Positions 7,755-52,779 are shown, numbered from the stretch's first letter. The stretch: 64,000 bases of DNA from Gemmatimonadota bacterium (GCA_003221895.1 QHUJ01000121.1:5847-69846), one strand, 5' to 3'. A program made the numbers and translations. The notes: a model not told the origin generated them from the letters alone.

Positions 7755-8846
7755 GTGAAGCGGTTCCCCGCATTCGATCCACCGGAGTACGTCGACTGGA
7801 AGCCCGACCACGCGCTCGTGCGGAGTTTCCGCGCTACGCTCGAAGCCGATCCCGATCGAGCGGCCATTGTGCAGGCTCTGTCCCGCGAGGCCAAGCTCGA
7901 GTTATATCGTGGTCTGGTGCGTGCCCGGCTGCATGATATCGAGCTGAAGCGCTGGGTTCGCACCGGCGTCATCTCCAAGGCCTGGCTAGGTACCGGAGAG
8001 GAAGCGACGACGGTCGGGCCCGTGCACGCATTGGAGCGGGGCAAGGACATCGTCGCGCCGATGATTCGCAACGCCGCGGCCTGCTGTGAGATGGGGATGC
8101 CGATCGCCGACATGCTGCGCGCCTATCTCGCCACCGCCGATTCCCCCAGCGGCGGCCGCGATCTCCACGTCGGCTCGTTCAGCGACGGCGTGCTGCAGCC
8201 GATCTCCCACGTGGGGGACATGGTGCCGGTGATCACCGGCATCGCCCTCACCTTCAAGATCAAGAAAGAGGCGCGCGTCGCGTTGACCTGGCTGGGCGAC
8301 GGATCGACCAAAACGGCCGCGGCGCACGAGGGAACGAATCTGGCGGCCGTGCAGCGCGTGCCTGCCATCTTCATCATCGAGAACAATCAGGTCGCGCTCG
8401 GCACGCGGCTCGAGCAGCACCATCTGCCCGCCGATTTCAAGGACTGGCCGTCCAGCTATGGCGTGTGGGGCGCGGTGTTCGACGGCAACAACGTGCTGGA
8501 TGCCTACGCGGCGACACGAATCGCCGCCGAGCGGTGTCGCAGTGGGAACGGGCCCGCGTTGCTCATTGCTGAAACGTTCCGCATGGGCGGCCACGCCACC
8601 CATGACGAGCGCGAGGCGCGGGAAACGTTTCCCGCCGAGCTGTTTACCACATGGGGCAAACGCGACCCGATCGGGCTGTATGAGGAGTACTTGAAGGAAG
8701 ACGGCGTCTCCGCGAAGGTTCTGGCGGACTTGGAAGGGGATGTCACTGCGGATGTGGAACGTGCGGCCGCCGCCGCATTGGCGAGCCGCGAGAAAATGCC
8801 GGACGGACGTACCGCCCTCGAGGGAGTGTATGCGAGCCGCAATTAG
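7755..8846 (+). CDS. Thiamine-diphosphate-dependent 2-oxoacid dehydrogenase E1 component, alpha subunit only
   Basis: Has the TPP-binding region GDGSTKTAAAHEGTNLAAVQRVPAIFIIENNQVA and FRMGGHATHD. The 363 aa length fits an alpha subunit. No beta subunit gene is adjacent. Confidence 0.8.
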   Translation: MKRFPAFDPPEYVDWKPDHALVRSFRATLEADPDRAAIVQALSREAKLELYRGLVRARLHDIELKRWVRTGVISKAWLGTGEEATTVGPVHALERGKDIVAPMIRNAAACCEMGMPIADMLRAYLATADSPSGGRDLHVGSFSDGVLQPISHVGDMVPVITGIALTFKIKKEARVALTWLGDGSTKTAAAHEGTNLAAVQRVPAIFIIENNQVALGTRLEQHHLPADFKDWPSSYGVWGAVFDGNNVLDAYAATRIAAERCRSGNGPALLIAETFRMGGHATHDEREARETFPAELFTTWGKRDPIGLYEEYLKEDGVSAKVLADLEGDVTADVERAAAAALASREKMPDGRTALEGVYASRN

Positions 8847-9909
8847 TCTCGTCGTCATCGGCCTGGCGTGCAGCAACCCGCCGCAATCAGCCGGACAGGA
8901 CCGCTCGCTGCGTGTCCCGACCGGCTTTCACATTTCTCTCTTTGCGGAGCGTCTGCCCGGCGTGCGGTATCTCGCGCTCGGACCGGGGAATGCGATCTAC
9001 GCCTCGCAACCCGCTTCCGGGTTGATCGTGAAGGTGACGGACACGAACCACGACGGCGTCGCGGATACGGTCGAGACGGTCTCGAGTGGCTTGCATGGTC
9101 CATTCGGAATCGCGTTCCGATCGGACACGATGTACGTCGCCGAAGAGCGTGACGTGATCCGGTTCGATCCCGGTGCTCGCTCCCCTGTGACCGTCATCTC
9201 GGGGATTCCCGCCGGTGGTCACTCCACCCGCACGATCCTGTTCGGACCGGACGGCAAGCTGTATCTCGCCGTCGGTTCGTCGTGCAATCTCTGCGAGGAG
9301 CGCGATTCGCTGCGCGCGGCGGTCAGCCAGTTCAGTCGCGACGGCTCGGGCGGCCGGATCTTCGCGAAAGGACTGCGCAACACCGTCGGCCTGGCGTTCA
9401 ATCCGACCACGGGCGAATTGTGGGGCGGCAACAACGACCGCGACAACCTCGGCGACGACCTGCCGCCCGAGCACGTCAACATCATCAAGGATGGCCGCAA
9501 TTACGGCTGGCCGCAGTGCTATCTGCCGGGCAAACCCAATCCCGAGTACGGCTCCGCCGACTGCTCGAAGATCGAGCCGCCGGCGATCACGGTCCAGGCG
9601 CACTCCGCCCCACTCGGGCTGGCGTTCTATACCGGCACGCAGTTCCCGCGCGAGTATCGAGGCGATGCGTTCGTGACGCTGCACGGCTCGTGGAATCGGT
9701 CGGTCCCGACGGGTGCCAAAGTCGTGCGCGTAAAGGTCGACAGTGTGGGGCAGCGCGCGGTGGGCGTGGAGGACTTCATCGTCGGCTGGCAGCTACCTGA
9801 TGGTTCGCGGTGGGGCCGGCCGGTGGGATTGCTCGTGTTACCGGACGGTTCGTTGCTCGTGAGTGATGACACCGGTGGCAAAATCTGGAGGGTGACGTAT
9901 GGACGGTAG
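8830..9909 (+). CDS. PQQ-dependent sugar (glucose/sorbosone) dehydrogenase family beta-propeller, secreted
   Basis: I chose the internal ATG at 8830 because it yields the signal peptide MRAAISLVVIGLACS. Family motifs are GLRNTVGLAFNPTTGELWGGNNDRD and GRNYGWPQCY. Confidence 0.75.
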   Translation: MRAAISLVVIGLACSNPPQSAGQDRSLRVPTGFHISLFAERLPGVRYLALGPGNAIYASQPASGLIVKVTDTNHDGVADTVETVSSGLHGPFGIAFRSDTMYVAEERDVIRFDPGARSPVTVISGIPAGGHSTRTILFGPDGKLYLAVGSSCNLCEERDSLRAAVSQFSRDGSGGRIFAKGLRNTVGLAFNPTTGELWGGNNDRDNLGDDLPPEHVNIIKDGRNYGWPQCYLPGKPNPEYGSADCSKIEPPAITVQAHSAPLGLAFYTGTQFPREYRGDAFVTLHGSWNRSVPTGAKVVRVKVDSVGQRAVGVEDFIVGWQLPDGSRWGRPVGLLVLPDGSLLVSDDTGGKIWRVTYGR

Positions 9910-46463: not shown

Positions 46464-47669
46464 ATGACAAAACTCATTTCACTCGCGGCCGTCGTCTCCA
46501 TCGTATTGACGTCTCCGCTCGCGGCGCAGGACTACCGGGCCCAGGCCATTCGCATCCTGCGTACTGTGCCTTTGATAGACGGTCACAACGACATCCCCGA
46601 TGCGGTGCGCGAGCGCGGTGGCCCCGACTCGGTCAACCTCGCCGTGAGCCAGCCGAAGCTGATGACCGACATCCCGCGGCTCCGTGCCGGCCACGTGGGT
46701 GGTCAGTTCTGGGCGGCGTATGTGCCGGTGAGCACGATACACGAAGGCGAGCACCCCGCGGTGTATGCATTGGAGCAGATCGACCTGGTGTACCGGCTGT
46801 GCGGCAGGTATCCCGCGACCTTCGCGATGGCCCGTACCGCCGCGGACGTCGAGCGGAACTTCAAGGCGGGCAAGATCTCGTGCCTGATCGGCATCGAAGG
46901 CGGCCATGCGATCGAGAATTCCCTGGGCGCGCTGCGCGCGTTCGCGCAGCTCGGCGTGCGCTACATGACGCTGACCCATTGGGAGACGATCGACTGGGCC
47001 GACGCGGCGACCGACAGCGCGAAACACAACGGGTTGACGACGTTTGGCGAGGCCGTGGTGCGGGAGATGAACCGGGTGGGCATGCTCGTCGATCTCTCGC
47101 ACGTCTCGGACGCCACGATGATGGATGCGCTGCGTGTGTCGCGCGCGCCGGTGATCTTCTCGCACTCATCCGCCCGCGCGCTCGACAACCACGTGCGCAA
47201 CGTCCCCGATTCGATTCTCACGCTGCTCGCGAAGAACGGCGGCGTCGTGATGACGAACTTCGCGCCCGACTACGTCTCGGAGTCGCTGCGGGTGTACGAC
47301 GACAGCCTACAAAAGAGGACGGCGCGGCTGCGCGCGGCGGGGCTGGATTCGGTGGCCGTTCGTGATTCGGTCAATGCCTGGCAGGCTGCGGGCCCAAAAG
47401 CGACGCTCGCCCAGGTCGCCGATCACGTCGAATACTTGCGCAAGGTGGCCGGCGTGGATCATGTCGGCATCGGCTCCGACTTCGACGGTATATCCAGCGT
47501 CCCGGTCGGACTCCAAGACGTGTCCAAATTCCCCGACCTGGTCGCGGAGCTGCTACGCCGCGGCTGGACCGAGGTTGACGTGAAGAAAGTGGCGGGGCTG
47601 AATACGCTGCGGGTGTTGCGGGAGGCTGAGCGAGTCGCGGGGGAGATGCAACGCCAACCGGAACGGTAG
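46464..47669 (+). CDS. M19 membrane dipeptidase family protein, secreted
   Basis: The ATG at 46464 gives the signal MTKLISLAAVVSIVLTSPLAAQ. Motifs are IDGHNDIP, GIEGGHAIE, DLSHVS and FSHSSARAL. Confidence 0.88.
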   Translation: MTKLISLAAVVSIVLTSPLAAQDYRAQAIRILRTVPLIDGHNDIPDAVRERGGPDSVNLAVSQPKLMTDIPRLRAGHVGGQFWAAYVPVSTIHEGEHPAVYALEQIDLVYRLCGRYPATFAMARTAADVERNFKAGKISCLIGIEGGHAIENSLGALRAFAQLGVRYMTLTHWETIDWADAATDSAKHNGLTTFGEAVVREMNRVGMLVDLSHVSDATMMDALRVSRAPVIFSHSSARALDNHVRNVPDSILTLLAKNGGVVMTNFAPDYVSESLRVYDDSLQKRTARLRAAGLDSVAVRDSVNAWQAAGPKATLAQVADHVEYLRKVAGVDHVGIGSDFDGISSVPVGLQDVSKFPDLVAELLRRGWTEVDVKKVAGLNTLRVLREAERVAGEMQRQPER

Positions 47670-47725: not shown

Positions 47726-48688
47726 ATGAGACGGCCCGCACAAGCAGTGATCGTGCACGGCGTGGTGGGCGGACTCCTCGCTGGACTCGTCGTCGTGCTG
47801 TGGTTCCTCGTTGCGGACTCACTGGCAGGGTATCCCTTCCTGACGCCCCGGCTGCTCGCCGGCATGCTCTTGAACAAGGATTTCGTGCACGTCACGCCCG
47901 GGCTCGTCGTCGCTTACACCGTGCTGCATTTCGGGGTCTTCGCAATCCTGGGCGTTGGTATGGCGTGGGTGAGCGCGACGTTGGCGGCGCCTGCTCGAGT
48001 CCTCCTCGGTCTACTCTTCGGGTTGCTCCTTCAGGAAGTCGTGTTTTACGCCGGCCTCCTTCTGTTTCGGGCGCCGCAGCTGGGTGTGATTCCCTGGCCG
48101 CACGTCGTCGGTGCGAATGTCGCCGCCGGGCTGGTGCTCATGGGGTACCTGCACTACGCGGAACACGATCCACGACCCCTGGGGCTTGCTGCTCTCCATG
48201 CGCCGCCCGTCGTGTCGCGCGGCGTGATCAACGGGCTCATTGGAGCGGCCGTTGTCGCCGCCTGGTTCTTCATCCTGGATCTCGTTAGGGGCACTCCGTT
48301 TCGTACGCCCGCGGCGCTTGCCTCCGCGCTGTTGATCGGTGGTGCCGGACCGGGAGACATCGTTGTCACGTTCGGCCTGGTCGCGGCGTACACGGTCGTG
48401 CACATCGTCGCCTTCGCGATTGCCGGAGTGGTTTTCGTTGCGTTGGCGGAGCAGGCCGAGCGCGCTCCCGCGATGAGCTTGCTCGTGTTACTCACCGCGA
48501 TTCTGCTCGATGGCCTGGTTCTCGCTACGTTGGGTGTAGGCGCCCAATGGGTTCTGGGGACGATCGGATCGTGGTCGGTAGTCGTTGCGAACTTCCTCGC
48601 CGTGCTGGCGATGGGCTGGCACGTATGGCGGACTCACCCTCTGCTACAACACCGGCTGCTGGAGGAACACCCACAGCTGCACGTTTAG
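47726..48688 (+). CDS. Hypothetical polytopic membrane protein built from two homologous ~150-aa, 4-TM halves
   Basis: The halves align by eye. GYPFLTP matches GTPFRTP, VAYTVLHFGVFAILG matches AAYTVVHIVAFAIAG, and VVGANVAAGLVLMGY matches VVVANFLAVLAMGW. No family was recognised. Confidence 0.6.
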   Translation: MRRPAQAVIVHGVVGGLLAGLVVVLWFLVADSLAGYPFLTPRLLAGMLLNKDFVHVTPGLVVAYTVLHFGVFAILGVGMAWVSATLAAPARVLLGLLFGLLLQEVVFYAGLLLFRAPQLGVIPWPHVVGANVAAGLVLMGYLHYAEHDPRPLGLAALHAPPVVSRGVINGLIGAAVVAAWFFILDLVRGTPFRTPAALASALLIGGAGPGDIVVTFGLVAAYTVVHIVAFAIAGVVFVALAEQAERAPAMSLLVLLTAILLDGLVLATLGVGAQWVLGTIGSWSVVVANFLAVLAMGWHVWRTHPLLQHRLLEEHPQLHV

Positions 48689-48782: not shown

Positions 48783-50918
48783 TCAGAACGCGCGTTCCAG
48801 CCCCAGCGCGACACCGCCGCGGGTCAGAATCGGCTGCGAATGCGTATACGTGGCATCGAGCCGCAGCTTCAAGCCGTTGGGCACGGTGTACCGAAATCCC
48901 GCTCCCGCGCTCCACGTGTCGAGCGACTGGATGGCTGTGCCGTTGAAAAAACTCTCCTGGCCACCGGACGCGAGAATGGACACCGCCGTCCGCGCGCCGA
49001 CCGCGCGCAGCGCTTGCAGCGATATCGCGAGATCGGTTTCCTGGGTCGGGCTATGCGAGATGAAGCCGCGTACGTTCCACGTCATCCGCGTCGACTCGAT
49101 GGTCGCGTGCGGCATGAACATGTCGACGGGGCCGACCGGATAGTTCCAATGCCGATACCCCGCGCCGACAGAAGCCCGCCGGGCAACGAGTCCCGCGACA
49201 TCGGCTTCCCAGGTGTTCGACGGCAGGAAGACCGGCTGGTGCGCCGTGCCCGCCTCGCCCGTGATCCACAGTTTCTGCCCGGGATGCCAGACGCCACCGA
49301 TGCGCTCGGTGACATCGACCTCCCCAAACCGGCCGACAACCTCGACGGCGGCCCATCCCCCATGCCCCTGCGGCGACATGACCGTAAGCTGCGCGCCCAA
49401 CGTGGACCAATCCTGGCTGTCGGTCACCTTCTCGTACGAGCTCCAGGCGCCGACGCGAAGATTCTGTCCCCGGCACGGCGCGGCGAGACACACCGCGAGC
49501 AGCGCCGCGATGCTCGTCTTGCCGAAGCCCTTGCGCGTCATGTCGCCCCACACCTGGGTGCGGCGCCACACGCTGACGAAGGCTTTGAGGCGCCACCACA
49601 CCGTGCATTGCCGGAAGCCGAAGTTTTCCAGTCCTGCGAAGAGCAGCAACCGGAATAGATCGCCAAAGCGCCGATAGCGACGGAAACTCACTTCCTCCAG
49701 CACGACGGCCCAGATCGAGAGCAGCATCCCGTAGCCCCAGGCGACCAGCACGAACAGCAGCGCGAACGAGACGTTCACCATGCCGAAGGCCAATCCGACA
49801 GCGGTGATCACGTAGCCGAGCAGCTCGATGAGCGGCGCCAGCATTTCGCCGAACGCGAAGAACGGCATCGCGAACAGGCCGACGCGGCCGTAGCGGGGAT
49901 TGAACAACATCGTCTTGTACCGCCACATCGCGGCGATCAGACCGCGATGCCAGCGCTCCCGCTGGCGTGACAGTACGGCCATCGATTCGGGGACCTCGGT
50001 CCAGGCGACGGGATCGGGAATGAACGGCATTTCGTACTTGATCCCGTTGAGCCGCAGATAGCGGTGCATGCGGACGACCAGGTCGAGGTCCTCGACAATG
50101 CTCGAGGTTTGATAGCCGCCGACCGCCATCACGTACTCCTTGCGAAACAGCCCGAACGCCCCCGAGATGATGAGATTGCCGCCGAGGCGGTTCCATCCCA
50201 GGCGCCCGAACAGAAACGCGCGCAGATACTCGACCACCTGGATTCCCGGGAGCAGCTTGGTCGGCACGCGCGCGTCAGTCACACGGCCGTCTTTCACCGT
50301 GCAGTTGTTCGCGACGCGGACGGTGCCCCCGACCGCGGCGATTTCACGACCCAGCAGGAACGGCCGCGTGAGGCGCAGCAGCGCGTCGGGCTCGATCAGC
50401 GTGTCGGCATCGATGGCGATGACGAGCGGGAAGCGGCTGGCGTTGATGGCGGCGTTCAGGGAATCGGCCTTCCCGCCGTTTTCCTTGTCGAGCACCAGCA
50501 GGCGCGAGCGCGACCGCGAGCGGTACAGCGCGCGGAGCGGCTGTGTGGGAATCGTTTCCGGATAGATGCGCGGGATCTCGTACAAATCGAACGCTTCACG
50601 CAGCCGCTCGATCGTATCGTCCTTCGAGCCGTCGTTCACGACGACGACTTCGTAGTTGCGATACTCGAGCGTGAGAATCGCGGTGACACTCGCCTCGATC
50701 GTTGCAGACTCGTTGTACGCCGGCACGAGGATCGTAATCGGCGGCAGCGCATCGCTCTGCATGAGACGCTGGAAGTCCTCGTCTTCGGCGAGGCGCGTTT
50801 GCTCCCAGATCTCGGGGATCGAGAGCAGCAGCAGCAGCGCATAGAACGAGTTGAGGACGAGGAAATACACCAGAATGGTGACATCCGTCGTCCCAATCAC
50901 CGGGGCGAGCGTGCTCAT
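48783..50918 (-). CDS. Processive family-2 glycosyltransferase (PgaC/IcaA/BcsA-like synthase) fused in frame to a ~250-aa outer-membrane-type (YaiO-like?) beta-barrel domain
   Basis: Start was chosen at the ATG at 50918 (MSTLAPV...), an ATGA overlap with the HEAT gene. GT2 motifs are ILVPAYNES, VVNDGSKDDT, NGGKADSLN, IDADT, SGAFGLFRK, VEDLDL and QRERW. After the last TM region come MTRKGFGKTSIAALLAVCLAAPCRGQ and a beta-rich domain ending ...GLERAF. Confidence 0.8.
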   Translation of the reverse strand: MSTLAPVIGTTDVTILVYFLVLNSFYALLLLLSIPEIWEQTRLAEDEDFQRLMQSDALPPITILVPAYNESATIEASVTAILTLEYRNYEVVVVNDGSKDDTIERLREAFDLYEIPRIYPETIPTQPLRALYRSRSRSRLLVLDKENGGKADSLNAAINASRFPLVIAIDADTLIEPDALLRLTRPFLLGREIAAVGGTVRVANNCTVKDGRVTDARVPTKLLPGIQVVEYLRAFLFGRLGWNRLGGNLIISGAFGLFRKEYVMAVGGYQTSSIVEDLDLVVRMHRYLRLNGIKYEMPFIPDPVAWTEVPESMAVLSRQRERWHRGLIAAMWRYKTMLFNPRYGRVGLFAMPFFAFGEMLAPLIELLGYVITAVGLAFGMVNVSFALLFVLVAWGYGMLLSIWAVVLEEVSFRRYRRFGDLFRLLLFAGLENFGFRQCTVWWRLKAFVSVWRRTQVWGDMTRKGFGKTSIAALLAVCLAAPCRGQNLRVGAWSSYEKVTDSQDWSTLGAQLTVMSPQGHGGWAAVEVVGRFGEVDVTERIGGVWHPGQKLWITGEAGTAHQPVFLPSNTWEADVAGLVARRASVGAGYRHWNYPVGPVDMFMPHATIESTRMTWNVRGFISHSPTQETDLAISLQALRAVGARTAVSILASGGQESFFNGTAIQSLDTWSAGAGFRYTVPNGLKLRLDATYTHSQPILTRGGVALGLERAF

Positions 50919-51982
50919 GCTGCAAACTCCGCGAGCGCCTGCGCCGGTAATCCCAGCACCATCTTGGCCGTCGCGCGGGCGTACGGGTCGCTCCCGACTT
51001 CGGCCTCGAGCAGCGCGTTCCGGCCCACTGCCGCGAAGCGCATCAACGCGAGCGCCGCGCGCAGCCGGACCCACCAGACATCGTCCCGCAGCGCGGCTTT
51101 CACGAGGGGGAGTGTGTTGACGTCGCCGATCATCCCCAGCGAGCGCGCCGCCTGCGCCCGGACGGGCCAGGAGCCGTCAGCGATCAGCCGCGTGAGCGCC
51201 GCCACGGACTCCCGGTGCGGGAAGGTGCCCAGCGAGCGCGCCGCCTGGACGCGAACTTCCGGATTGGGGTGATCGGCCAGCGCCGTGAGGCGCTCGCGCA
51301 GCGCCGGCTCACCGAGCCGTGCCGCGAACTCGGCGAGCCGCGCCAGTCCAGGGTCTTCGCTGCGGCGCAGTCGCTTCTGCAGATGCTCGACGACGACAGG
51401 CCGGGAGCGCAGCAACATGGCTGCGTAATACGCCTGAACCGTTGGCGCGAGCTTGGGGAGACGCTCCAAGGCCGTCAGCGTCAGCGCTGTGTTCTCCATG
51501 CGCTCGAGGCAGGCGACGGCGGCGACGTGCACCGCCGGGTGCGGGTCATTGATGAGGCGCGTGAGCCGGGCGGCGTCCTGCGGCATCGCCGCAACGCTGA
51601 GAAAGCGGGCGCACTCGAGCCGCTTCCACCACCGCGCGGAGCTGCTGTTGCTGCGCACCAGACGCGCCCACCAGTTGTGCTCGAGGGCGAGCGCCAGCTG
51701 GCGCCAGCGCTCGCCCGGGACGCGCGCGGACCATTTGACGAGCGCATCGATCGCGAGCGGCACGGGAAGCCGGGACAGGCCGACGAGCACCCCCGCAAGC
51801 GGAGCGGTGCCGGCCGCCCAGCGACGCATCGAGGCATCGACCGCCTCACGCCGTGGATTGAGCCGGGTGCTGCGTCGCACCCGGAACCAGCGGTTCAGCA
51901 CGATGAGGACGATGAGCGCGCCGAGCAGGCCGCCCTGCACGATCGCCACCACGATGAGGAACTGTCGGGGCGACGCGATCAT
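50915..51982 (-). CDS. Membrane-anchored HEAT-repeat protein
   Basis: The ATG at 51982 overlaps the upstream stop (ATGA). An N-terminal TM helix (FLIVVAIVQGGLLGALIVLIVL) is followed by HEAT/PBS-lyase-like repeats (DPHPAVHVAAVACL, HPNPEVRVQAARSLG, GSWPVRAQAARSLG, DVWWVRLRAALAL). Confidence 0.75.
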   Translation of the reverse strand: MIASPRQFLIVVAIVQGGLLGALIVLIVLNRWFRVRRSTRLNPRREAVDASMRRWAAGTAPLAGVLVGLSRLPVPLAIDALVKWSARVPGERWRQLALALEHNWWARLVRSNSSSARWWKRLECARFLSVAAMPQDAARLTRLINDPHPAVHVAAVACLERMENTALTLTALERLPKLAPTVQAYYAAMLLRSRPVVVEHLQKRLRRSEDPGLARLAEFAARLGEPALRERLTALADHPNPEVRVQAARSLGTFPHRESVAALTRLIADGSWPVRAQAARSLGMIGDVNTLPLVKAALRDDVWWVRLRAALALMRFAAVGRNALLEAEVGSDPYARATAKMVLGLPAQALAEFAA

Positions 51983-52779
51983 CTGCCCACCCACCGCCGG
52001 ATTTTTTCGAGCGCGACACGCAGGCTCATGGGCTTGACCATGTAGTCCAACGCCCCTGCCTCGAGGCCGCGCAGCTGCTCGGACTCACTGCCATGCACGG
52101 TCGTGAAGACCACGCGAAACTTGCCTGGGCACTCCTCCTTGAGCGCTTCGAAGATCGAATAGCCGTCGAGCGCCGGCAGATCGACGTCCAGCAGCAACAG
52201 CGGCGTCTGCCCGTGCGTCTCCAGCTCGCGGAGGGCGTCCAACGCCTCGCGGCCGTTGCGGTAGTGCACGAAGCGATAGCCGCGCGCCTCCAGCCCGAAC
52301 GTCAGCAGCTCCGCCAGCGTGGGATCGTCCTCGACGACGATCACTTCGGGGACGTCGGCTGCCGGCAGGTCGGGAGAGGCCGGTGGAGGAGCCGGAGCGA
52401 TGTCGATCCGCGGCGGCGCGCCCTGCTTCGTGAACAACGCGGCCGCGAGACGACGCACGAACGCGCGGGCTTCCTGCCCGCGATTTCCGGCGCTGCCATT
52501 GCCAGGGTGCTCGAGCCATTGCGTGGTGGCTGCCTCGAGCTCTGCCGCGACGACGCTTGCCTGGGGAAATCCGAACGAACCAGCCGAGCCGCGCAGCCGA
52601 TGGGCATCGCGGCGCAGTGCTTCTATCGCAGCCGTGTCGTCGCCCGCGGCGACGAGCCGTTCGGCTAGTTCGGCGATCGCCCCGAGCTGGTCGCGGGCTC
52701 CCTGCAGGTATTCGTCCCGTGCGCCGGGGGGAAGCCCGAAGTCGTCGACTCCTCCCCCTCCCTGGTTCACGGGCACCAA
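51979..52779 (-). CDS. Hpt-REC two-domain phosphorelay protein (no output domain)
   Basis: The Hpt motif is HRLRGSAGSFG, with His at about residue 60. REC motifs are VIVVEDD, LLLLDVDLPALDG and MVKP. The start is uncertain (TTG at 52779, or GTG at 52776 or 52770). Confidence 0.8.
   Translation of the reverse strand: MVPVNQGGGGVDDFGLPPGARDEYLQGARDQLGAIAELAERLVAAGDDTAAIEALRRDAHRLRGSAGSFGFPQASVVAAELEAATTQWLEHPGNGSAGNRGQEARAFVRRLAAALFTKQGAPPRIDIAPAPPPASPDLPAADVPEVIVVEDDPTLAELLTFGLEARGYRFVHYRNGREALDALRELETHGQTPLLLLDVDLPALDGYSIFEALKEECPGKFRVVFTTVHGSESEQLRGLEAGALDYMVKPMSLRVALEKIRRWVGR

Follow-up and report, generated by a model that had tools for sequence, protein, structure and literature searches.

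A family 2 glycosyltransferase and a YaiO-like outer-membrane barrel encoded in one reading frame across a predicted internal signal peptide in a Gemmatimonadales clade

A single minus-strand open reading frame (ORF) at positions 48783-50918 of a 64,000-nt stretch of Gemmatimonadota bacterium DNA (GCA_003221895.1 QHUJ01000121.1:5847-69846; the whole analysed stretch is called the window) encodes a family 2 glycosyltransferase (GT2) synthase, an internal signal peptide and a YaiO-like beta-barrel in one chain of 711 aa and 79.2 kDa. Genes for an inner-membrane enzyme and for an outer-membrane barrel do not normally form one reading frame. The product is probably a polyprotein that would be cut by signal peptidase I between G484 and Q485, freeing a 24.5-kDa YaiO-type porin. 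The original prediction for this region was of a GT2 synthase joined in frame, through a Sec-type signal peptide, to an outer-membrane beta-barrel, and homology and fold prediction uphold that core reading. It had offered three outcomes, namely a cleaved polyprotein, two products through internal initiation, or a recent fusion or assembly indel; the first is now the best supported, on the strength of a conserved cleavage signature from which we infer the cut itself.

The minus-strand frame 48783-51074 is uninterrupted and comprises 763 codons in its longest form, counted from the first GTG (51074). The true start is almost certainly the ATG at 50918, which gives the 711-aa protein, because the 120 best homologues are 704-716 aa long (nearly all of them 711) and because this ATG forms an ATGA overlap with the stop codon of the upstream HEAT-repeat gene. 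Residues are numbered here in the 711-aa form, so that the residues originally called M512 and Q537 become M460 and Q485. The junction is laid out as M-TRKGFGK-TSIAALLAVCLAA-PCRG↓Q (arrow, predicted cut), leading into a 227-aa domain. The codons at 49541-49464(-) were read identically to the first reading of them, M-TRKGFGK-TSIAALLAVCLAAPC-RG-Q.

At least 120 clusters (90% identity) of JGI, NCBI, ENA and Logan assemblies have the fused architecture of 704-716 aa, and all named fused homologues belong to the Gemmatimonadales or Gemmatimonadetes. Eight independently assembled loci keep the frame, seven of them in GTDB-representative metagenome-assembled genomes and the eighth in the window. In a scan for loci, a 7-sequence barrel alignment proved too divergent, and a 4-sequence alignment gave eight loci in genome contigs. 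Synonymous third-position changes occur at K, G, A, L, C, P and Q codons through the junction in the codon alignment, with the amino acids fixed, and the fused junction has its own conserved sequence, KGFGK-PSVAALL, unlike the junction of relatives in which the two genes are split. We set aside P0123-P0134 and P0192/L015 as fragments or chimeras. L015, a related contig at 0.55x coverage, has gene-breaking frameshifts, so frameshift errors do occur in data like these; but the frame recurs in eight loci and, across four data sources, in at least 120 protein clusters, and this recurrence, together with synonymous codon changes and a distinct conserved junction, leaves a vanishingly small chance that a sequencing or assembly artefact or a decaying pseudogene conceals two genes that are really separate here. 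We rejected this explanation, and with it the assembly indel considered at the outset.

An exhaustive profile-free search with the C-terminal 252 aa yielded 19 clusters at 50% identity, including stand-alone barrels of ~250 aa. Six loci (L001, L003, L013, L014, L016 and L017) share the gene order Hpt-REC, HEAT, GT2, barrel, followed by convergent M19 dipeptidase, Fer2 and XDH genes. The order around the window's fused gene matches that of these split loci, where separate genes encode a GT2 of 465-480 aa and a barrel of 249-261 aa, with a 4-nt overlap of GT2 stop and barrel start (ATGA or GTGA). The split GT2 ends with WG[ED]M.RKGFxxx before its stop codon; one such GT2 ends ...VWGEMVRKGFGTA and its overlapping barrel begins MRTAATALLAAS..., and a second pair reads ...WGEMVRKGFGTT and MNRSVVWVLVAL... 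at the same positions. To the question of whether orthologues are separate genes or fused, the answer is that both occur: the syntenic relatives are split, and at least 120 clusters are fused.

Fused and split forms are 66-83% identical in the GT2 and 44-50% identical in the barrel. In neighbour-joining trees, both of mature barrels and of GT2 halves, the fused forms are one derived group within the split radiation, and L017 is the nearest split relative. Comparison of these loci shows the fusion to be derived, in one Gemmatimonadales clade, from a translationally coupled pair of GT2 and barrel genes. A single small frame-changing lesion at the ATGA junction would have led to the loss of both the synthase stop and the barrel start, and the barrel's own initiator Met and n-region are lost in the fused form. 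The fusion foreseen by the original prediction is therefore genuine, but the description of it as recent does not fit a clade whose barrels have diverged to ~53% identity.

The internal Sec-type signal peptide (49467-49541(-)), assigned by homology and residue pattern, would consist of an n-region M460-K467 (+3), an h-region T468-A480 and a c-region P481-C-R-G484. It lies at residue 460 of 711, and is N-terminal only in the split orthologues and in L011 and L012, two loci described below. The segment is conserved in all 120 fused homologues and corresponds, by positional homology, to the signal peptides at the N-termini of 38 stand-alone barrels. In each of these 38 complete barrels the signal peptide is 15-30 residues long and ends [L/A/G/V]-x-[A/G/S], and Q-x-x-R-x-x-x-W-G-S-Y-E comes after the cut, as it does after A-T-P-C-x-[G/S/A] in the fused proteins. 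The topology first argued for this region also fits, with RRYRR and RKGFGK in the cytoplasm and the hydrophobic segment oriented N-in/C-out.

Signal peptidase I requires small residues at -1 and -3. The cleavage pattern was read by eye in the 120 fused proteins, where the -1 residue is G in 71, S in 26, A in 22 and C in one, and the -3 residue is C in 103, G in six, L in four, A in three, V in two, and M and S in one each. Position -4 is P in 117 proteins, +1 is Q in 120/120, and -2 is unconstrained (L, R, S, F, H, V, G or Q). Judged from this pattern, selection at -1 and -3 is on small size and not on identity, matching the needs of signal peptidase I, and G484↓Q485 is the predicted site. Cys is common at -8 and -3 in the fused set, and the mature barrel is nearly Cys-free. 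We considered a lipoprotein reading of these Cys residues; a lipobox must have G, A or S at -1, and neither L-A-L-C (-8) nor A-T-P-C (-3) fits a lipobox, while the split orthologues are without these Cys, and the reading was rejected.

The mature barrel domain would extend from Q485 to F711 (48786-49466(-); 227 aa, 24.5 kDa), ending in ...GVALGLERAF, with a ...GLERAF beta-signal. AlphaFold2 (AF2) was run once with an alignment restricted to homologues at least 75% identical, in which the synthase half had a predicted local distance difference test (pLDDT) score <50, and a second time with stand-alone GT2s and barrels added to the alignment, which raised the mean pLDDT to 79.8. Both runs placed 14 antiparallel strands, at pLDDT ~90, across residues 486-710, so that the barrel originally proposed for the C-terminal ~225 aa is borne out by structure prediction. 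The top fold match is OmpG (TMt 0.61-0.67), and the PgaA porin 4y25 is also listed; the domain is accordingly predicted to be a closed OmpG-type barrel with an even number of strands, 14. The YaiO-family model TIGR04390 is matched over positions 15-230 of its 230, at 26.4 bits where the cutoff is 32, and 21 of the 22 members of the window barrel's family match it at E<=1e-3 (best 8.9e-22). PF19413 is assigned to several homologues. Similarity between E. coli YaiO itself and the window barrel was not detected by BLASTP (E 2.6) or by hhalign of the 22-sequence profile (probability 0.1). The C-terminal residue is Phe in the window protein and L or F in 119/120 fused homologues.

An outer-membrane barrel must leave the inner membrane for assembly by the beta-barrel assembly machinery (BAM). 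In the AF2 models strand 1 begins at residue 486, one residue past the predicted cut, and there is no linker; an uncut chain therefore could not put the barrel in the outer membrane.

Further evidence that the barrel can be a free protein came from L011 and L012, which again have two genes. Their GT2 is closer to the split-type GT2 of L013 (91-92% identity) than to fused GT2s (~81%), and their barrel is closer to barrels of the fused clade (80-87%) than to that of L013 (62%). The barrel starts at the Met equivalent to M460, within GGAGG-N4-ATG, and reads MARKGSGRRGVAALLALCLATPC[IL]G↓Q. The W-G-D codons TGGGGCGAC are changed to GGAGGCGA[CA], placing a Shine-Dalgarno (SD) sequence 4 nt upstream of the ATG, and GGAGGCGA[CA]ATG stands at the site of TGGGGCGACATG in the fused genes. 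In both loci (L011:5930-6060 and L012:4930-5060) the GT2 ends WGEMVRKGFATPS and a stop codon, followed by 11 nt containing GGAGG and then by a barrel beginning MARKGSGRR.... This beginning has the character of a relic of the fused junction, and the two halves have discordant phylogenies. By these comparisons, L011 and L012 are recombinants in which a piece of the fused gene, from the WGDM codons onward, is now a normal secreted precursor. Read in this way, they show that M460-F711 suffices by itself as a precursor and that the barrel works when free. A separate observation concerns L013:4123-4170, where the barrel ORF begins MNILRWGTMTRNYVVAALL and the DNA cggtggggtacgatgacccgcaa resembles the WGEMVRK codons of the GT2 that lies just upstream, as though these had been copied a second time and the copy had diverged; the GT2/barrel boundary seems to be a recurrent site of short duplications of the WGEMVRK motif.

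The recombinants bear on a rival explanation, internal initiation at the ATG at 49541 (M460), which would yield a 27-kDa precursor MTRKGFGK... to be exported and cleaved, with the full-length chain a by-product or also cleaved. The sequence from M460 onward is a textbook precursor and is used from the equivalent ATG in L011 and L012, and in all fused genes the W-G codons provide TGGGG 4 nt upstream of the ATG. However, conservation of the Met and of the TGGGG is just as high in 65/65 stand-alone GT2s, which need no start at this place, and is therefore uninformative, and no extra third-position constraint was seen upstream in the fused genes. Confident starts in the window are mostly without an SD sequence, the operon depends on ATGA termination-reinitiation, a mechanism that could not act within a fused frame, and the full-length chain would be made anyway and would still have to be resolved. 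We consider internal initiation improbable: a precursor from the equivalent Met is used in L011 and L012, but specific support for the start at 49541 was not found in the fused genes.

The motif that contains this Met, WGDMTRKGF (residues 457-465; 49524-49550(-)), is invariant in the fused set and is the C-terminal motif of the synthase. WGxMxRxGF occurs 3-23 residues from the C-terminus in 65/65 stand-alone Gemmatimonadales GT2s and also in all split loci, in agreement with the original remark that the GT2 part ends with a motif typical of stand-alone enzymes. Two candidate lines of evidence were discarded here. M460 (the former M512) as a relic start codon was rejected, as the Met belongs to the GT2 motif in the 65 stand-alone enzymes. 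Analysis of SD sequences was uninformative, as the W-G codons by themselves dictate a G-rich stretch and an SD sequence is absent from most of the window's genes.

The preferred reading, cleavage of a polyprotein at the internal signal, must also be weighed against an uncleaved chain in which the hydrophobic segment is a fourth, permanent transmembrane (TM) helix. At 50-60% barrel identity, the 17 residues before the cut (49467-49517(-) in the window, and homologues) are 66% identical among fused proteins versus 19% among stand-alone barrels, and S469, V470, A471, A472, L473, L476, A479 and P481 are each at least 90% conserved. An internal segment so much more conserved than ordinary signal peptides would suit a permanent anchor, as would the many fused homologues that end in Leu and not Phe; BcsA-type synthases in general also have more TM helices past their last interface helix. 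Set against this, the combination of G, S or A (one C) at -1, invariant Q at +1 and P at -4 is the pattern of the N-terminal signals of the split orthologues. The hydrophobic core is ~11-13 residues long, within an uncharged run of 15-17, and the junction has a 19-residue Kyte-Doolittle maximum of 1.53 versus 1.9-2.4 for the three true TM segments; the segment is therefore signal-peptide-like and not anchor-like, with a core too short for a stable anchor. No means is known by which a closed OmpG-type barrel of 14 strands with a lipid-facing exterior, as confidently predicted here, could fold at the inner membrane, and the same barrel is free and secreted in close relatives, including the recombinants L011 and L012. 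An uncleaved anchor is, in our judgement, a little less probable still than internal initiation.

Several observations do count against cleavage of a polyprotein, or weaken the case for it. Cys at -3 (103/120) and Gly at -1 are permitted, yet they are not the commonest signal peptidase I residues, and the strong conservation of the signal segment would also suit a permanent uncleaved helix. In the AF2 models the junction (residues 457-473) has pLDDT <50 and is uninformative on helix packing. Most fused homologues end in Leu (96/120, ...GVERGL) and not in the classical Phe, with which stand-alone barrels mostly end (32/44). The neighbour-joining trees were built without bootstrap. Finally, the operon is without a periplasmic TPR scaffold, a modifying enzyme or a known cyclic di-GMP (c-di-GMP) receptor, and passage of the polymer across the periplasm is not accounted for.

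The high conservation of the segment may mean that the helix is kept on the synthase after cleavage and has acquired contacts there; alternatively, an internal signal may be under stricter requirements than an N-terminal one. We tentatively speculate that the signal peptide has been turned into a permanent, selected and new C-terminal transmembrane helix of the synthase (S-V-A-A-L-L-A-L-C-L-A-T-P-C), and that exactly one porin is delivered per synthase at the site of its insertion, although we regard this as doubtful. If true, the gene would provide a covalently encoded route from the inner to the outer membrane, and the 3.5-fold higher signal conservation would reflect helix-helix contacts within the synthase. 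We found no description in the literature of such a covalently encoded route for any exopolysaccharide system.

Our model for cleavage of the polyprotein begins with an ancestral pair, an inner-membrane GT2 and a YaiO-family 14-strand outer-membrane porin, whose adjacent genes would have been coupled through the ATGA overlap. After fusion, the cytoplasmic tail of the synthase, RKGFGK, would supply the n-region for the signal peptide inherited from the barrel, and the ribosome would yield a single 79-kDa chain. Past TM1-TM3 and the interface helix, the hydrophobic segment of ~13 residues would enter SecYEG N-in/C-out, and the 227-aa barrel domain would be translocated to the periplasm. Signal peptidase I would then cut at C-R-G↓Q. 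The released 24.5-kDa barrel, whose N-terminal Gln may cyclise, would be passed to chaperones and BAM and inserted in the outer membrane as a pore for the synthase's polymer, and the signal peptide would be retained as the C-terminal helix of a 54.7-kDa synthase.

The synthase half (residues 1-459) matches Pfam Glyco_tranf_2_3 (2.9e-27), and also Glycos_transf_2 and Chitin_synth_2. Its D, DxD, ED and QRERW motifs are invariant or nearly so across 121 sequences, and hydropathy indicates one N-terminal and two C-terminal TM segments. TM1 (residues ~10-34; 50817-50891(-)) is predicted to run from N-out to the cytoplasm, with a hydropathy peak of 2.29 and an AF2 helix at 4-32. The cytoplasmic GT-A catalytic domain (residues 59-326; 49941-50744(-)), assigned from Pfam and NCBIfam matches, motifs and fold match, holds NDGS(95), DAD(170), VED(275) and QRERW(319). 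TM2 (341-377) and TM3 (383-412) follow at 49683-49898(-), with a hydropathy of 2.37 and AF2 helices, and lead to the cytoplasmic RRYRR. A long helix at residues 418-451 (49566-49667(-)) is present in both AF2 models and has no hydropathy peak; by analogy with BcsA, we infer that it is an amphipathic interface helix on the cytoplasmic face.

The best match of the synthase half among solved folds is the Chlorella-virus hyaluronan synthase 7sp7 (TMt 0.58, AF2 model), and BcsA can be aligned by sequence over residues 45-399. The best named NCBIfam family is PgaC/IcaA (TIGR03937), at 140.8 bits against a cutoff of 422.3 and hence below the equivalog threshold; by a score so far under the cutoff, the GT2 half is not a PgaC/IcaA orthologue. 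On motifs and the fold model, it is best described as a processive, polymer-translocating synthase of the PgaC and hyaluronan-synthase kind.

The fused gene and the genes at 50915-52779(-) form an operon of three genes only, with an ATGA overlap at every junction. The first encodes an Hpt-REC response regulator (51979-52779(-); Pfam Hpt 1.1e-10, Response_reg 1.3e-18), which is syntenic in L012 and L016. The second encodes a HEAT-repeat protein (50915-51982(-); Pfam HEAT_2 4.7e-22) with an N-terminal TM helix and cytoplasmic repeats, and has ATGA overlaps on both sides. The HEAT gene is found with the GT2 in all related loci, even in L019, whose order is barrel-HEAT-GT2 and an EAL gene is nearby. 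In L020 the GT2 is next to a TPR-YaiO barrel. The GT2 and the YaiO-like barrel look like a dedicated synthase/porin pair, by analogy with PgaC/PgaA or BcsA/BcsC, because more distant YaiO-like barrels also adjoin such GT2s in other gene orders. The TPR-YaiO protein itself (L020:5001-6206) has 401 aa, with N-terminal TPR repeats and a YaiO-type barrel, and its gene adjoins a divergently oriented gene for such a GT2; among YaiO-family proteins, it has a PgaA/BcsC-like architecture in miniature. The gene at 47726-48688(+), which is convergent with the fused gene, encodes a 320-aa polytopic membrane protein with no Pfam match and is conserved at this position in L011, L012, L014 and L016.

Two further observations were made across the window. 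Confident gene starts (gyrA-like 1772, leuS-like 28761 and others) are without a recognisable SD sequence, which suggests that initiation in this organism is largely SD-independent. At least six other predicted signal peptides in the window, at 46464(+), 55704(+), 37283(-), 12000(-), 42238(-) and 33580(+), end small-x-A↓Q, as possibly do those at 8830(+) and 15635(-), and one at 9899(+) is an exception; by this count, ends of this type make up most of the window's predicted N-terminal signal peptides. Examples are PLAA↓QD, AFA↓QQ, PLAA↓QE, PLAA↓QR, LPA↓QR and SGA↓QE. Q at +1 was counted by eye, and the scanning script stops at Q by construction, so the count is not an unbiased test. These ends look like the Bacteroidetes 'Q-rule', which is associated with pyroglutamate N-termini, and to our knowledge the rule has not been described for the Gemmatimonadota. 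The paper on the Bacteroidetes rule reports that Q enrichment is not consistent across the Fibrobacteres-Chlorobi-Bacteroidetes (FCB) superphylum, and Gemmatimonadetes are unmentioned in it (PMC5837995).

The fused clade represents a natural test of what happens when an inner-membrane enzyme and an outer-membrane barrel are joined; the evidence suggests that signal peptidase, by cutting at the internal signal, comes to the rescue. The split orthologues and the recombinants with a restarted barrel provide controls for studying recognition of an internal signal, the limits of cleavage, and effects on stoichiometry or location. The operon may be a very small synthase-plus-porin system for polysaccharide export, with a control module of HEAT-repeat and phosphorelay proteins. 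The host phylum is an abundant and poorly studied soil group, and the fused clade consists of soil Gemmatimonadales. The fused gene also gives a handle on the YaiO family. The 711-aa fused proteins carry the name 'glycosyltransferase' in some sources and 'YaiO family outer membrane protein' in others, and both halves appear in none of the names seen; each of these single-domain labels misses half of the protein.

Among known systems, the closest are the split Gemmatimonadales pairs, which are orthologous to the fused gene and share its synteny, the Hpt-REC and HEAT genes upstream, the C-terminal motif of the GT2 and the N-terminus of the mature barrel. They differ in having two overlapping genes, a barrel with its own Met and a poorly conserved N-terminal signal, whereas the fused signal is internal and strongly conserved. 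In E. coli, as the original prediction stated, a GT2 gene (yaiP) and a gene for a barrel of about this size (YaiO, 257 aa, the namesake of TIGR04390/PF19413) lie in one cluster, yaiS-yaiP-yaiX-yaiO, co-oriented on one strand. There, however, the genes are separate, acyltransferase and deacetylase genes lie alongside, and the window GT2 is only 28% identical to YaiP, over 221 aa. Our literature search found no functional study of the E. coli cluster or of the YaiO family, and in the papers that it returned yaiO is mainly a polymerase chain reaction marker.

The synthase-dependent exopolysaccharide systems PgaCD/PgaA, BcsAB/BcsC, Alg8-44/AlgE and PelF/PelB likewise combine an inner-membrane processive GT2 with a dedicated outer-membrane beta-barrel porin. 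Their barrels have 16-18 strands, in contrast to the OmpG-like 14 of the window barrel; the window operon differs further in lacking a TPR scaffold, a deacetylase and a known c-di-GMP receptor, and in encoding synthase and porin in one ORF. We found no report in the literature of an inner-membrane synthase fused to its outer-membrane porin, or of a GT2-YaiO fusion. OmpG, the best structural match of the C-terminal domain, has the same number of strands (14), but at ~10% sequence identity the resemblance is one of fold only, and OmpG, a channel for oligosaccharides, is not linked to any synthase.

Two cases of fused membrane proteins offer the nearest parallels for the proposed processing. The fbcH precursor is reportedly cut at an internal signal sequence, in work of Thony-Meyer et al. 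(1989-1991) for which our literature search gave no confirmation. Like the window gene, fbcH encodes a multi-span inner-membrane protein followed in frame by an exported partner; unlike here, where the released barrel would go on to the outer membrane via BAM, both of its products stay in or on the inner membrane. Such cytochrome b-c1 fusions are documented in Bradyrhizobiaceae (PMC4986455). In Komagataeibacter/Gluconacetobacter, AcsAB (BcsA-BcsB) is synthesised as a single chain that proteolysis splits into two proteins (PMC4877109), so that a synthase of the same superfamily also shares a chain with a partner subunit. In that case BcsB does not leave the inner membrane, an outer-membrane protein plays no part, and the processing is not ascribed to signal peptidase at an internal signal (PMC4877109). 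On comparative evidence, the window gene is, as in these processed membrane polyproteins, one ORF encoding two proteins that are separate genes in relatives.

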